This document shows, piece by piece, positions 8,351-32,122 of a stretch of 50,301 bases of DNA. The stretch lies in assembly GCA_030698665.1 (NCBI GenBank), contig JAUYMI010000029.1:1-50301 (forward strand). The letters run 5' to 3'. The notes under the pieces are model-generated. The model searched no databases, had not been told where the DNA came from, and saw only the letters and a program-made list of their open reading frames with translations. The translations under genes and the position numbers were made by a program. Numbering within the stretch: the first letter of the stretch is position 1; the number at the start of each line of letters is the position of its first letter. The stretch comes from a bacterium. Its GTDB lineage: Bacteria; Patescibacteriota; Minisyncoccia; Minisyncoccales; UBA10102.

Positions 8351-9057
8351 GCGAGGTTGGAGTATATCTCCTGGATGTCCTCAAGATCATCAAGCGCTTC
8401 AAGCAGACGTTCGGCTGCAGCCGTATCGCTCTCTGAGACCGTGACGGGCTCTTTTGCCACCCAGTCCACTGAGGAGGACTCAATGGCGAATCCGGCAAGT
8501 GAGAGTTTTCCCTTGAGGTTTTCCAGCTCCTCTGGTCTTCCTGAGACCTCAAGAGCGTCGGGGACCCAGGAGAGGTCCTCGGCTCCAGCTTCGATGGCGG
8601 CCAGTTCGGCCTCCTCTTTTGATTTTGAGCTGGAGACCTCAACGATGGCCCTTTGCTCAAACATCCACTTCACTCCTCCGGCGTCCACGAATTTTCCTCC
8701 GTTTTTAGATAGGGCCTGTCTGATTTCCCCGAGCGTACGATTCTTATTGTCCGTGATTGCCGCGATAAGCAGGGTGATACCGCCAGGCCCATACGCCTCG
8801 TACATGGCGTCTTCAAGCTGCCCCCCGGCGAGTTCTCCGGTTCCCTTCTTAATAGCCCTCTCAATGCTGTCAGAGGGCATATTAGAGGCCTTTGCCCGAT
8901 CAACGGCCAGACGGAGCCTGATATTGGAAGCAAGATCGTTTCCGCTCTTTGCGGCCAGCGCGATCTCGCTAGAGATTTTTGAGAAGACCTTGGACTTTTT
9001 CGCGTCGGCAGCTTCTTTTTTGTGCTTGACGGTCTTGGCGTGAGAGTGTCCGCTCAT
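8347..9057 (-). CDS. yebC: YebC/PmpR family DNA-binding regulator
   Basis: MSGHSHAKTVKHKKEAADAKKSKVFSK N-terminus typical of the family, 236 aa, lying between ruvC and ruvB. Confidence 0.9.
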   Translation of the reverse strand: MSGHSHAKTVKHKKEAADAKKSKVFSKISSEIALAAKSGNDLASNIRLRLAVDRAKASNMPSDSIERAIKKGTGELAGGQLEDAMYEAYGPGGITLLIAAITDNKNRTLGEIRQALSKNGGKFVDAGGVKWMFEQRAIVEVSSSKSKEEAELAAIEAGAEDLSWVPDALEVSGRPEELENLKGKLSLAGFAIESSSVDWVAKEPVTVSESDTAAAERLLEALDDLEDIQEIYSNLA

Positions 9058-10028
9058 ATGAGTTCTGGATTTGGAAGCTTGAGTCCGAGGTGACGATAGG
9101 CTGATGGAGTGGCGACCCTCCCCCTCTGAGTCCTTTCTATGAGTCCTTGCTGGATGAGGAAGGGTTCGTAGACCTCAAGCACAGCCTCCTCTTCTTCAGA
9201 GCACGCAGCGGCCAGGGATTGGGCTCCTACAGGTCCTCCCCTGAATCTAGTGACGATGGTGGAGAGAATCTTGCGGTCCCCCTTCTCCAGACCGAGTTTG
9301 TCTATGCCGAGAAAGGCGAAGGCGTGTTCTGTGATCTCTGGGGTGATGATAGAGCTCCCTTTGATGGTGGCAAAGTCCCTCACGCGCTTGAGCAGGCGGT
9401 TGGCGACCCGGGGGGTGAGGCGAGAACGCTCTGCGATCTGTCTTCTTGCCACGGGATCCAGCTGAACTGCGAGGATGCCAGAGGAACGCTCCAGGATCTG
9501 CTCAATGTGCTGTAATTCATAGAAGTTGAACTGGAAGGTGGCACCAAATCGGTTGCGGAAGGGGGAGGAGAGGAGCTGGAGTTTTGTGGTTGCCCCGATC
9601 AAAGTGAAGCGGGGGAGCTGGATATCCATGGTTCGTGCCATGGGCCCTTTTCCGATTACGAGGTGCAGGGTGTAGTCCTCCATGGCCGAGTACAGCATCT
9701 CTGTGACCGATTTGTGGATGCGATGGCACTCGTCCAAGAACAGGATGCTCCCCTCCTCAAGATTAGTGAGGAGGGAGGCAATGTCTCCCACGCGTTCTAA
9801 CTGAGGCCCGGCGCATGTGGTCACTTTTGCTCCCGTTTCGTTCGCTATCACATGAGCCATTGTAGTCTTTCCGAGTCCGGAGTTGCCATAGAAGAGAAGG
9901 TGTTCTAATGGCTCGCCTCGCTTGCGGGCGGCCTTGATAATGACATCAAGGTTGCCCTTGAGTTGTTCCTGTCCGACGTATTCGCTCCAGGTTTTGGGTC
10001 GTAGGTTTGTGTCAGGGAGAGATGCCAT
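9054..10028 (-). CDS. ruvB: Holliday junction branch migration helicase RuvB
   Basis: AAA+ Walker A GNSGLGKTT, Walker B LFLDECHR, sensor motifs and a winged-helix C-terminus. Confidence 0.92.
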   Translation of the reverse strand: MASLPDTNLRPKTWSEYVGQEQLKGNLDVIIKAARKRGEPLEHLLFYGNSGLGKTTMAHVIANETGAKVTTCAGPQLERVGDIASLLTNLEEGSILFLDECHRIHKSVTEMLYSAMEDYTLHLVIGKGPMARTMDIQLPRFTLIGATTKLQLLSSPFRNRFGATFQFNFYELQHIEQILERSSGILAVQLDPVARRQIAERSRLTPRVANRLLKRVRDFATIKGSSIITPEITEHAFAFLGIDKLGLEKGDRKILSTIVTRFRGGPVGAQSLAAACSEEEEAVLEVYEPFLIQQGLIERTQRGRVATPSAYRHLGLKLPNPELI

Positions 10029-10035
10029 AGGGGCC

Positions 10036-10064
10036 TTGACAAGATTTTTCTTTCGTATTATAAT
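10036..10064 (+). promoter_or_regulatory. consensus sigma70-type promoter (TTGACA-17-TATAAT)
   Basis: TTGACA 10036-10041, a 17-nt spacer, TATAAT 10059-10064. The ATTATAAT core also reads TATAAT on the minus strand (10057-10062) toward ruvB. Confidence 0.6.
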
Positions 10065-10070
10065 TTAGAG

Positions 10071-10328
10071 GATGTGAGTGGAGAGCTTTTCTCCTACTCG
10101 CCCCCTGAGCTGGGGACCTGGAATTACTTTTCGGTAGGGTACCGCGGGTCGTGCTGCGATATTCCCCAATGTAATTCTACGATTTGGCAGCTGGTCAAAT
10201 TGGTCCCCAGCTCAGGGGGTCAAAAGCAAACTTCTTTGCTTTTGACGGGAAACCTACCTTAGTATGCCATGTGCGAAGCACGGCACAAAGGGGTTTCACA
10301 GGGACTCGCCGTAAGGCGAGTTTCTTTT
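10071..10328 (+). ncRNA. candidate structured non-coding RNA, family unassigned
   Basis: Starts ~7 nt after the consensus -10. Elements in order: a 5' hairpin (10080-10094); an 18-bp perfect helix (10101-10118 / 10202-10219) closing a three-way junction with helices 10119-10127/10171-10179 and 10181-10186/10196-10201; a 12-bp hairpin (10219-10246); and a GUAA-capped hairpin with a U-tract (10304-10328). There is no credible ORF. Confidence 0.45.
10219..10246 (+). repeat. 28-nt perfect hairpin (12-bp stem, 4-nt loop), AAAAGCAAA family
   Basis: GTCAAAAGCAAA-CTTC-TTTGCTTTTGAC. A near-identical element sits at 21400-21427. Confidence 0.6.
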
Positions 10329-10433
10329 ACAGTTACTTTTGCCCCTGAAAACTCAAGCAACTTGCCCCTGGCCATATTCTCAACTCCACGGTGCTTCGTT
10401 CCACTTAGCACATCGTTCCGCGAGAATATGCCC

Positions 10434-10461
10434 CTGAAACCACAAGCAGTTGTGGTTTCAG
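10434..10461. repeat. 28-nt perfect hairpin (12-bp stem, GCAG loop) overlapping the pilB stop codon
   Basis: CTGAAACCACAA-GCAG-TTGTGGTTTCAG. It may act as the pilB 3' end hairpin. Confidence 0.5.
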
Positions 10462-11759
10462 CCCGCGACCCGCACCACCTCTTCAAGGGTGGTGATTCCT
10501 TCCAGCGCTTTCAAGAATCCGTCCTGGCGCATGGTAACCATGCCCTGCTCAATGGCCTTTTTCCGTACGGCTGGGATTGATCCTGATGCTAGAATGAGTT
10601 CCTGCACTTCTTGCGTGACGGCGATTGCTTCAAAGATTCCCTGGCGCCCTTTATATCCCGTATCTCCACAGACCTTGCATCCCTTTGGGCGCTTGAGCGT
10701 GGTTGTAGCTGAAACCTTCTGTGCGATCTCTTTGGGAAGAGATGAGAGATCTCGCTCAATCAGAGTCAATTCCTGAGCTGTGATCTTCCCAGGTTCCCCA
10801 CAGCTTGTGCACAGAGTTCTCACCAGGCGCTGGGCTATGACGAGATTGAGGGCGGGAGCGATGTTTGCCGCGGTAGCTCCGAGGGAGATGAGGCGAGAAA
10901 TGGCTCCCGCAGCGTCATTCGTGTGCAGGGTTGAGAAAACTAGGTGTCCTGTGAGGGCGGCCTGGAGCGCGATGTCCACGGTTTCCTCGTCCCTCATCTC
11001 GCCAACGAGAATAACGTCCGGGTCTTGCCTCACGATTGCCTTGAGTCCTGAGGCAAAGTCATATCCCTTCGTCGGATTCACCTGCGTTTGAGAGATCCCC
11101 TCCAAGTGGTATTCAATAGGGTCTTCAATGGTAATAATCTTGATTTCGGGAGCAAGAATGGTTCTCAAGAAGGCGTAGAGCGTGGTGGTCTTTCCCGATC
11201 CCGTGGGTCCGGTCACGAGCACCATGCCGTTCGGGCGCTTGATCTCCGACTCAAAGAGGGCGAGCAGGTCTTTTCTCAGCCCGAGCTCGGGAAGTTTGCG
11301 CAGGCTCTTGGGGTCCAGTACGCGCATCACCAGGGACTCCCCATGTTCTGAGGGAAGGGAGGAGATTCTGACCTCAATGGGAGATGTTGCTTCGTTGATT
11401 GAGAAGCGGCCATCCTGCGGTCTGTCTGCCACGTTAAGCTTGAGACCCGAGAGGAGCTTGATGCGAGAGAGCATGGGGCGGAAGGATTCAAGAGAAAGGG
11501 TGGCCGCGTCATGAAGCATGCCGTCCACTCTGAGTCTGATCTGAACCTGTTTCTCCTCTGGTTCCACGTGAACGTCGGAGGCCTTGAGCGCTAAGGCCGA
11601 GGCCAGGAGAACGCTCACGGCGTGCGTGGTATCTTTCCCGAGAGCCCCTTCAAGCATCGGGCCCAGGTCTTTGGCCGAAACCACCTGGCCTGAAACTTCG
11701 CTGAGCAACTGGTCTGTGATCTCAATCTCTCCTGAAAGCGCGCGGTGTTCCTCGTTCAT
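10458..11759 (-). CDS. pilB: type II/IV secretion (type IV pilus assembly) ATPase, GspE/PilB family
   Basis: Walker A GPTGSGKTTTLYA, Asp box ITIEDPIE, Walker B DPDVILVGEMRD, His box TGHLVFSTLHTN, tetracysteine CTSCGEP...CKVCGDTGYKGR. The N-terminal region is short. Confidence 0.88.
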   Translation of the reverse strand: MNEEHRALSGEIEITDQLLSEVSGQVVSAKDLGPMLEGALGKDTTHAVSVLLASALALKASDVHVEPEEKQVQIRLRVDGMLHDAATLSLESFRPMLSRIKLLSGLKLNVADRPQDGRFSINEATSPIEVRISSLPSEHGESLVMRVLDPKSLRKLPELGLRKDLLALFESEIKRPNGMVLVTGPTGSGKTTTLYAFLRTILAPEIKIITIEDPIEYHLEGISQTQVNPTKGYDFASGLKAIVRQDPDVILVGEMRDEETVDIALQAALTGHLVFSTLHTNDAAGAISRLISLGATAANIAPALNLVIAQRLVRTLCTSCGEPGKITAQELTLIERDLSSLPKEIAQKVSATTTLKRPKGCKVCGDTGYKGRQGIFEAIAVTQEVQELILASGSIPAVRKKAIEQGMVTMRQDGFLKALEGITTLEEVVRVAG

Positions 11760-12517
11760 TGGAGTTGAGTGAGGATGCGCTCTTGTATCTCTTGTGGTCG
11801 CTGGTTTGGTGCCGTGAAGAGAAGCCAGCCCTTCTTTTCTTGAGAAGGGAAGGATGAGGAGATGCTTTGCTTGAGCGCCTCATCCCCAGAGCACAAGAGT
11901 CCTTTGGCTTTGCCGTTTTCCTCAAACAGGACGAGGCAGGAAGGGACTCCGAGCTCCTGAATTTCTTTGAGGGCGGAGGGTAGAATTTTGGCTGATAGAT
12001 GCTGGGTGGGGGAAGAGATGCAGAGCTTTGACTCGGTGCTGTGGCGCGAGTGAGCCAGAAGATGCGAGGCAATCTTGATACTCTCAGCTGAATCGGGGAG
12101 CTTGAGCAGGATGGACTCTAAGAGTTCCTTGGTGCCCGCCACAATATTTTTCTCGTTGTCCGACAGGCTCTTTTCCCCTACAATGATGGTGAGATGGGGA
12201 GGTTGGCTCGTATCTATAGCAAGATCCTTTGGCGAGATGTCCCCATTTTTGAGAGTGAAGTACAGCCGCACGTCTTGGCTGTCCCGCTCATAGTACACTT
12301 TTGAGATGACGCGTCCCAACCCCCTCAGCGTGACGGCAAAGTTCTTCTCGTGAAGGGGCGATTCAGGAAGCCCCGTCTGAAGGTTGAGGGGAAGCTTCAC
12401 CTGTTTGCCGAGCTTGCGCAGGGCGAGATAGAAAGCGAACGCCGCTTCTCGCCCCTCTGCACCCGGAACTTCCAGGGTAATAGCGGGAGCAGCAATGATG
12501 TGTTCAAAGTCAGCCAT
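11756..12517 (-). CDS. hypothetical protein, translationally coupled to pilB
   Basis: Long ORF with an ATG at 12515-12517 (MADFEHIIAAP...). The stop overlaps the pilB start. I recognise no family motif. Confidence 0.6.
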   Translation of the reverse strand: MADFEHIIAAPAITLEVPGAEGREAAFAFYLALRKLGKQVKLPLNLQTGLPESPLHEKNFAVTLRGLGRVISKVYYERDSQDVRLYFTLKNGDISPKDLAIDTSQPPHLTIIVGEKSLSDNEKNIVAGTKELLESILLKLPDSAESIKIASHLLAHSRHSTESKLCISSPTQHLSAKILPSALKEIQELGVPSCLVLFEENGKAKGLLCSGDEALKQSISSSFPSQEKKGWLLFTAPNQRPQEIQERILTQLQ

Positions 12518-21326: not shown

Positions 21327-21337
21327 GAGAGTAGACC

Positions 21338-21400
21338 CGGTGCAGTTTCTCGCCTCGCGGTTCGCCTGTTAGCAAACATCGCTCGCAGAGAAACTGCCCG
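21338..21400 (+). other. long stem-loop between the NIF3 gene and tRNA-Arg
   Basis: GCAGTTTCTC (21342-21351) pairs with GAGAAACTGC (21388-21397), extendable by CGG/CCG with a 1-nt bulge, enclosing a 36-nt loop. Confidence 0.4.
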
Positions 21401-21427
21401 ACAAAAGCAAAGCAGTTTGCTTTTGTC
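21400..21427 (+). repeat. 28-nt perfect hairpin, AAAAGCAAA family, overlapping the tRNA 5' end by 3 nt
   Basis: GACAAAAGCAAA-GCAG-TTTGCTTTTGTC. Confidence 0.6.
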
Positions 21428-21496
21428 CCCATAGCTCAAGGGATAGAGTGTAGCCCTCCGAAGGCTGAGATGCAGGTTCGAGTCCTGCTGGGGACA
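21425..21496 (+). tRNA. tRNA-Arg (anticodon CCG)
   Basis: Hand-folded cloverleaf. Acceptor GTCCCCA/TGGGGAC; D stem GCTC/GAGT; anticodon stem TAGCC/GGCTG with loop CTCCGAA; T arm GCAGG-TTCGAGT-CCTGC; discriminator A. No CCA is encoded. Confidence 0.9.
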
Positions 21497-31773: not shown

Positions 31774-32122
31774 TGGTGGAGGCGGGGAGGATGAGCTCCC
31801 GTCCAGCATGAGTAGGCCTCGTGAGTCTTCAAGCGTAGTCGGGCCTGGTAAGGAACGGAGTCAAGGCCCGACGAAATCTCCATTCCTGCGGTCCCTTATG
31901 CGGCGGTGAGTCGGGACCAGATTTTCACCGTCGTTTCTCGAAACGTGACGCCTCTTTGACCTATCGAGAATCGGTCAGGAGACGGCCGTAAGCTTACGCT
32001 ACAGCTAAGGCCGGTTGTCGGCCGAATATGTTGCCAGATAATGTGGCCCCACTTGATTTGTGAGAGATCGGGGCTCTCAGCTTGCACACGCAGCTTCCCA
32101 TCCTGTCAATGCGCTCGCCCCC
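31774..32122 (-). ncRNA. ssrA: tmRNA (SsrA)
   Basis: The 5' GGGGGCG pairs with the 3' CGCCUCC-ACCA, including a G3:U70 wobble. The T arm is GGGAG/CUCCC. The internal reading frame GGC AAC ATA TTC GGC CGA CAA CCG GCC TTA GCT GTA GCG TAA gives tag GNIFGRQPALAVA. The gene is 349 nt and lies directly downstream of smpB. Confidence 0.85.

Follow-up and report, generated by a model that had tools for sequence, protein, structure and literature searches.

A candidate structured RNA gene kept beside an orphan PilB-type ATPase gene across the Paceibacteria

The intergenic island at positions 10036-10461 of the window (the whole 50,301-nt stretch of DNA that was analyzed, contig C4 of a 572-kb genome in 29 contigs) lies between ruvB and an orphan gene for a PilB-type ATPase, which we call pilB2. 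An earlier note, made from the letters of this DNA, had placed both genes on the strand opposite to the island, and the gene calls put both on the minus strand. It had also singled out one perfect promoter in the window, pointing into the island, and had read what follows as a single multi-helix RNA of ~400 nt. The promoter is indeed unique, with one perfect TTGACA-17-TATAAT match in the 50-kb window versus 0.01 expected by chance. The single long RNA did not stand, given that only a three-way junction of ~128 nt (10097-10223), here termed RNA A, is conserved and the rest consists of repeat modules. When the island was compared to related genomes by BLAST, the matches fell into two separate sets: query positions 72-191 (10101-10220) gave one match per genome, at the same locus, and query positions 187-293 (10216-10322) gave several matches per genome, in other places. 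The island is three things, an RNA gene and two repeat modules, rather than one RNA (Table 1).

Table 1. Features at and around the island, in coordinates of the window
Feature	Positions	Strand	Remarks
ruvB	9054-10028	-	Pfam RuvB_N, AAA_lid_4 and RuvB_C; divergent (head-to-head) to the RNA gene; yebC and ruvC come next
Predicted sigma-70 promoter of the RNA gene, TTGACA-17-TATAAT	10036-10064	+	Unique perfect match within the window
5' leader hairpin	10074-10100	+	From the minimum free energy fold; confined to its own family; leaders of relatives vary in sequence and length
RNA A, conserved three-way-junction RNA (predicted)	10097-10223	+	Covariance-model limits; 97.2 and 90.7 bits (two models)
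P1 closing helix, 5' arm	10101-10118	+	Pairs with 10202-10219; 20 of 21 helix-1 pairs with compensatory changes
P2 long irregular arm	10119-10179	+	9-bp base, internal loops, conserved GG/CC pairs, variable apical loop
P3 short hairpin	10181-10201	+	Helix 5; 5 of 6 pairs compensatory
P1 closing helix, 3' arm	10202-10219	+	Without a following U tract in this genome
Module B	10219-10335	+	Multi-copy in relatives, 75-82% identity
Module B, 12-bp hairpin	10219-10246	+	
Module B, stem-loop	10247-10300	+	
Module B, GUAA hairpin and U tract	10304-10328	+	
Module B2, inverted	10461-10339	-	Copies that align with it lie at window 21436-21318 and on contig C23
Module B2, 12-bp hairpin	10461-10434	-	Starts at the ATPase stop codon
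Module B2, stem-loop	10433-10422 / 10381-10370	-	Positions are those of the closing helix
pilB2, orphan PilB-type (T2SSE) ATPase, 433 aa	10458-11759	-	PF00437, E = 5e-119; tail-to-tail with the RNA gene
253-aa gene	11756-12517	-	Overlaps the pilB2 start; predicted DHH/DHHA1 (NrnA/RecJ-like) fold without catalytic motifs

The conservation of RNA A was followed with two covariance models, the first built from 15 members of the family and the second from 33 members. Of 301 genomes from the same order, 147 matched the first model, nearly always with one copy, and a closed 671-kb genome of a relative contains the RNA exactly once. With the second model, the RNA was recovered from 18 of the 21 genomes sampled in the order and, with weaker matches, from approximately 21 genomes in other orders of the class. 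Compensatory changes were already present at 22 of the 50 pairs in the 15-member family alignment. In the 33-member alignment, 92.9% of cells were paired, 39 of 50 pairs had changed on both sides, and the covariation score was 0.55; sliding the 3' partners by 1-3 columns as a control reduced pairing to 36-56% and the score to 0.09-0.18. This alignment had been fitted to the model; an independent MAFFT alignment gave the same picture, with compensatory changes in 34 of 40 predicted pairs. There was no shared reading frame among members, and 19 of the 33 had stops in all six frames, and we rejected a protein-coding function given that no common open frame exists.

The strand of the RNA was not evident from folding energy. 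The minimum free energy (MFE) fold of 10070-10335 on the plus strand had a z score of -9.4, and 0 of 200 shuffled sequences were as stable, but the minus strand was about equally stable (z = -9.5), so that energy alone gives no strand. The promoter and the pair counts do: G-U and U-G pairs outnumbered A-C and C-A pairs by 180 to 29, which argues that the plus strand is the RNA strand. The earlier note had proposed an undescribed structured RNA on the plus strand, and this part of its reading is borne out by conservation in relatives and by covariation, together with the absence of any Rfam match. A literature search found no published description of the RNA. On these comparative grounds, we take it as shown that 10036-10223 of the plus strand is a predicted stand-alone gene for a noncoding, single-copy, structured RNA of ~128 nt behind a consensus promoter. 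RNA A truly belongs to a family of RNAs that extends through the class Paceibacteria, part of the Candidate Phyla Radiation (CPR), and that is not yet catalogued.

The fold that emerges from the relatives retains most of the helices that had been drawn from the single sequence. The 18-bp helix that joins the two ends is perfect (100% complementary) and corresponds to P1, for which the model holds 21 pairs (19-21 bp) and the window copy has 18 perfect pairs plus one G-U. The MFE fold reproduced the 5' hairpin, the 9-bp helix, the 3' hairpin of the junction, and the GUAA hairpin with its U tract. The hairpin with a GAA loop was also present, at 10265-10283 rather than 10268-10285. The inner hairpin CGGTA-GGG-TACCG can be read in the sequence but gained no support from relatives, in which the conserved pairing at this site is GGGUA/UAUUC plus CGCGG/CUGCG. 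Across the 33 members, the junction strands were 1, 3 and 1-2 nt long, so that the junction is closed. The apical loop of P2 varied among members between UNCG, GNRA and other types. The P3 loop was GUUCCNAANAC in most members and GCAGCUGGU in the window copy. The tail after P1 reads TCAAAAGCA in the window; at least 5 T within 9 nt followed P1 in 33 of 43 relatives, and the 5' side of P1 was A-rich in 18 of 43 loci. Three arms were found throughout this order, and an extra hairpin at the junction occurred only in members from other orders, which were 145-215 nt long. The number of arms (three or four) thus varies by lineage within one RNA family.

In all 28 homologous loci examined, the RNA was preceded by a near-consensus promoter (TTGACA-16/17-TAnAAT, matching at 11 or more of 12 positions), whose end lay 4-66 nt ahead of P1. 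The spacer from the -10 box to the closing helix is only 4-17 nt in most of the order, which leaves no leader. Ahead of the RNA, a palindromic leader hairpin, AUAGGACAUGUCCUAU, is common to several genera of Wildermuthbacteria (L012, L013, L022 and L027), and the leader hairpin of the window differs from it. The -10 region at 10055-10064 reads ATTATAAT and contains a perfect TATAAT on either strand with an offset of 2 nt. A start toward ruvB from this shared -10 box would be possible in principle, and no fitting -35 box was seen on the ruvB side.

The identity of RNA A was also considered against known RNAs. The Rfam scan that the earlier note had called for yielded no family at the window locus, either at gathering scores or at E values up to 10, and no match at the RNA position in 20 diverse members. 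The note had likewise been unable to match the region to RNase P, signal recognition particle (SRP), 6S, transfer-messenger RNA (tmRNA) or T-box signatures. 5S rRNA has a similar size and three arms, but RF00001 was silent here and the genuine 5S gene lies at C6:14471-14578 (72.5 bits). RNase P RNA and tmRNA were likewise set aside, since the true copies are at C5:14713-15100 and at window 31774-32122. SRP RNA was a tempting candidate because the genome has no other. RNA A resembles it (4.5S; RF00169) in size and in its paired ends, but it lacks the domain IV motif, its apical loop is freely variable, and it has no RF00169 match; the absence of Ffh and FtsY from the genome led us to exclude this candidate. 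A riboswitch or other 5'-leader element was rejected given that the next downstream gene is convergent in 59 of 59 loci, and the closing of the two ends by a 19-21-bp helix leaves no obvious alternative fold for a riboswitch. The 18-bp inverted repeat could have belonged to a miniature inverted-repeat transposable element, which we rejected because this element is syntenic, occurs as a single copy and has covarying arms.

The genomic position of the RNA gene was highly consistent. In all 59 loci fetched, which cover many families and several orders, the RNA is convergent (tail-to-tail) with the PilB-type ATPase gene. The divergent neighbor is ruvB in approximately 40 of the 59; the others have yebC or a gene for a lamin-tail-domain surface protein instead, always on the ATPase strand. 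The RNA gene therefore always lies antisense between two co-oriented genes, and its invariant neighbor is the orphan PilB-type ATPase gene and not ruvB. Only a few nucleotides separate its -35 box from the start of the downstream gene, 7 nt in the window. From the end of the model to the ATPase stop codon, the median gap was 6 nt (0-9 nt in most relatives), compared to 234 nt in the window. Insertions of 50-290 nt between the RNA and the ATPase gene were present in 16 of 40 loci, the window included, and the RNA was still kept.

The protein genes on this side of the locus were characterized further. The pilB2 gene is an orphan paralogue, and a second PilB is encoded together with a PilT on contig C15. 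Upstream of pilB2, the 253-aa gene is translationally coupled to it, and a homologue is also found upstream of the ATPase gene in the closed relative. A Pfam search of the 253-aa protein returned no match. Its predicted structure (pLDDT, the predicted local distance difference test score, of 87.7) matched DHH/DHHA1 enzymes (NrnA, TM1595, GdpP and RecJ-like) with a Foldseek probability of 1.00. The DHH and GGGH motifs were found in none of 31 aligned members of this protein family. On the strength of the structural model, the 253-aa protein is probably a noncatalytic partner that binds nucleic acid or nucleotides.

We considered what RNA A may do in the cell. As a whole, the best explanation of the locus would be an RNA gene whose product is stable and bound to a protein from a neighboring gene, and we lean slightly toward this explanation being right. 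With its paired ends, RNA A would act as part of a ribonucleoprotein, and the leading candidates for its partner would be products of the adjacent genes: the PilB-type ATPase, the DHH/DHHA1-fold protein coupled to it, or the Ruv proteins. That RNA A is specifically a stable, abundant RNA acting in trans within such a particle is a proposal by analogy, which we hold with a little less than even confidence. We infer that RNA A is abundant and stable. Under this explanation, the layout would have an effect in cis as well, in that the strong promoter would fire head-on into the path of transcription from pilB2 to ruvB and the RNA is fully complementary to that spacer. Bacterial Y RNAs (YrlA) are encoded next to their protein partner, Rsr. 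RNA A is like them in being small and multibranched, with a long stem formed from both ends, and in being kept beside particular protein genes, and its P3 loop (GUUCCNAANAC) may loosely recall a T-loop. Unlike the Y RNAs, it gave no Rfam match (E up to 10), and its conserved neighbor is a PilB-type ATPase.

Several points weigh against this interpretation. The E values of the models are rough, and one of the alignments (A4) was fitted to the model structure. What is said here of the transcript, its ends and its abundance was deduced from signals in the sequence, and the idea of a ribonucleoprotein is drawn by analogy from the paired ends, the conserved internal loops and the neighboring genes. 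The window copy is atypical, with a P3 loop that departs from the motif, no U tract after P1, and 97 bits compared to 110-131 for the family. The perfectly conserved antisense position between two co-oriented genes would be explained equally well by an antisense or interference role in cis alone.

Such a cis-acting role is the main alternative and a serious one, although we consider it unlikely as the main function of the RNA. In this model, RNA A would be an antisense or transcription-interference element (excludon-like) that sets the ratio of ATPase to Ruv proteins, and its fold would serve stability and termination. Its strong promoter would collide with transcription from pilB2 to ruvB, and the RNA, which pairs perfectly with the spacer, would form a duplex that could be cleaved by RNase III, which the genome encodes. 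The invariant placement between the ATPase gene and a co-oriented ruvB, yebC or lamin-tail-domain gene in 59 of 59 loci is what this model would predict. The ATPase stop codon lies a median of 6 nt from P1, and so the ATPase mRNA must enter the RNA gene antisense. On the other side, the start codon of ruvB, which is read on the opposite strand, is 7 nt away from the -35 box of the RNA promoter, too close for ruvB to have a consensus promoter of its own. However, an antisense transcript needs no conserved three-way junction, and yet the plus-strand fold (G-U over A-C pairs, as counted above) and the sequences of the internal loops and the P3 loop are kept. The RNA has also been retained despite the inserts of 50-290 nt that separate it from the ATPase gene in 16 of 40 loci. 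An antisense role in cis and a role in trans can coexist.

Under the explanation that we prefer, a stable RNA bound by a protein encoded next door, a more specific version would make the RNA a subunit or substrate of an undescribed machine of the Paceibacteria, in which a PilB-type hexameric ATPase and a catalytically dead partner of the NrnA/RecJ fold would take part in nucleic-acid uptake, export or recombination at the envelope. We regard this version as a long shot. The fixed neighbor of the RNA is an orphan PilB-type ATPase whose companion has what is predicted to be a dead nanoRNase fold, and, if the version were true, it would describe an RNA-protein complex in a class that appears to have also dispensed with the SRP. 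CPR bacteria account for a large share of bacterial diversity; their genomes are very small, and hardly any experimental work has been done on them. RNA classes of this sort are seldom discovered. When an RNA is present as a single copy with a consensus promoter and is kept across a whole class with genomes of 0.5-1 Mb, it likely has a central role.

A second alternative is that RNA A is the 6S-type RNA of this lineage, an abundant decoy for the RNA polymerase holoenzyme. It shares with 6S RNA (SsrS; RF00013 and RF01685) its single copy, strong consensus sigma-70 promoter, paired ends and rodlike shape, formed here by P1 and P2 with a hairpin branching off the 3' strand, and the Rfam 6S models matched nothing anywhere in the genome at E values up to 10. 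The open central bubble of 6S RNA is, however, absent, given junction strands of 1, 3 and 1-2 nt; RNA A, at ~128 nt, is well under the usual 150-200 nt; and not even weak matches to the 6S models were obtained on the window or on 20 members at the same lax threshold. We therefore consider a 6S-type function improbable.

The head-to-head arrangement with ruvB-yebC-ruvC raised the possibility that RNA A mimics a branched nucleic acid and binds or titrates the neighboring Ruv Holliday-junction machinery. The presence of ruvB beside the RNA in about two-thirds of loci and the fourth arm in members of other orders would be in keeping with such a mimic. Across this order, however, there are three arms and not four, and the variation between three and four arms by lineage weakens the idea of a Holliday-junction mimic. 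In approximately one-third of loci ruvB has been swapped out while the RNA and the ATPase gene stay paired, and RuvA and RuvC recognize DNA junctions, with nothing here that favors binding of RNA. We consider this alternative very improbable.

We give just as little credence to the proposal that the whole island, 10036-10461, is one functional RNA of ~400 nt. No terminator with a U tract precedes 10304-10328 on the plus strand, so that 10071-10330 at least may be one primary transcript. However, relatives have only the ~128-nt core ahead of the ATPase stop codon, both 10219-10335 and 10339-10461 are repeat modules with further copies at other places in this genome and in related ones, and the second module aligns with its other copies on the minus strand. 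Last, the element could be just a bidirectional terminator or structured spacer without an RNA product of its own, as the T-rich 3' side and A-rich 5' side of P1 in the loci counted above would allow termination both ways, but a near-perfect promoter is aimed into it in 28 of 28 loci and a terminator needs neither covariation in the inner arms nor conserved loops, which makes this scarcely credible.

The absence of the SRP from this lineage emerged alongside the RNA. The SRP pathway is usually called universal. The SRP RNA model RF00169 gave no match in this genome or in 36 genomes of the family. The sole near-match to a small SRP RNA in the family (30 bits, below the cutoff) is at G022:C16:366-452, on a small contig of a 1.1-Mb assembly, and may be contamination. 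The Ffh/FtsY family PF00448 was absent from this genome, was missing from all 35 family genomes examined apart from one P-loop fragment, and was found in 0 of 401 genomes of the class. A tblastn search with E. coli Ffh reached a best E value of only 0.13 in this genome and 0.25 in the closed relative, compared to ~1e-13 for an S16 control. Taken together, these searches indicate that neither this genome nor the closed 671-kb relative has Ffh, FtsY or 4.5S RNA. A literature search found no report of SRP loss in Patescibacteria. A lineage without the SRP deserves a study of its own. In this genome and in the closed relative, no homologue of the E. coli GTPase Era came up by tblastn at E < 1e-3. 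RNase III, which E. coli encodes in the same operon, is present in both.

The remainder of the island belongs to modules B and B2, which are inverted copies of a family-specific hairpin repeat and not part of the conserved RNA. In this genome the two modules stand between the RNA and the ATPase gene, with module B fused to the 3' side of RNA A. The 12-bp hairpin reported at the start of module B is present, and a second one heads module B2 at 10434-10461. The 9-bp helix described near pilB was found as 10370-10381 paired with 10422-10433. A 20-nt direct repeat (10340-10359 and 10429-10448) was confirmed, and the repeats of TGCCCCTGAAA belong to the repeat modules and not to the RNA. The stem-loop of module B is closed by GGGAAACCU/AGGUUUCCC (..GGUUUC) and has a conserved GCC-AU-GU...AC-GGC core. 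Given that P1 has no U tract in this genome, the transcript probably runs on to 10304-10328, which would make it ~260 nt, and the GUAA hairpin and U tract of module B are probably its terminator here.

There are 3-4 copies of the modules in this genome, where B and B2 of the island form an inverted pair, and up to three copies of module B per genome, plus shorter pieces, in related genera. A scan of module B with a 14-mer gave almost only chance matches, and the distribution was taken from a longer pattern, which occurred only in assemblies of the Wildermuthbacteria family. The G-U counts of module B lean weakly toward the plus sense, and no convincing promoter was found flanking its copies on either strand. 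In 7 of 11 loci, a module copy lies directly against the 5' end of a tRNA gene that runs the opposite way. The modules resemble repetitive extragenic palindromes and bacterial interspersed mosaic elements (REP/BIME) in being multicopy intergenic hairpins with varying stems and a conserved short motif, placed at gene ends and in inverted pairs. They differ in being larger (~100 nt, with a second conserved stem-loop) and in that many of them abut the 5' ends of tRNA genes.

Of the 17 perfect hairpins of this genome, 4 have the form ..AA-CTGC-TT.., with a CTGC/GCAG loop and varying stems of 11-12 bp, as do 16 of the 74 counted in the closed relative. Those with 12-bp stems at 10219-10246, 10434-10461, 21400-21427 and C23:35834-35861 each head a repeat module of ~100 nt. 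Such hairpins lie at stop codons or over the first 3-5 nt of tRNA genes. At window 21327-21496, a tRNA-Arg(CCG) gene follows an open reading frame with no promoter between them, and an inverted B2 module is situated just ahead of the tRNA. The hairpin of this B2 module includes positions 1-3 of the tRNA, so that hairpin and acceptor stem compete for these bases.

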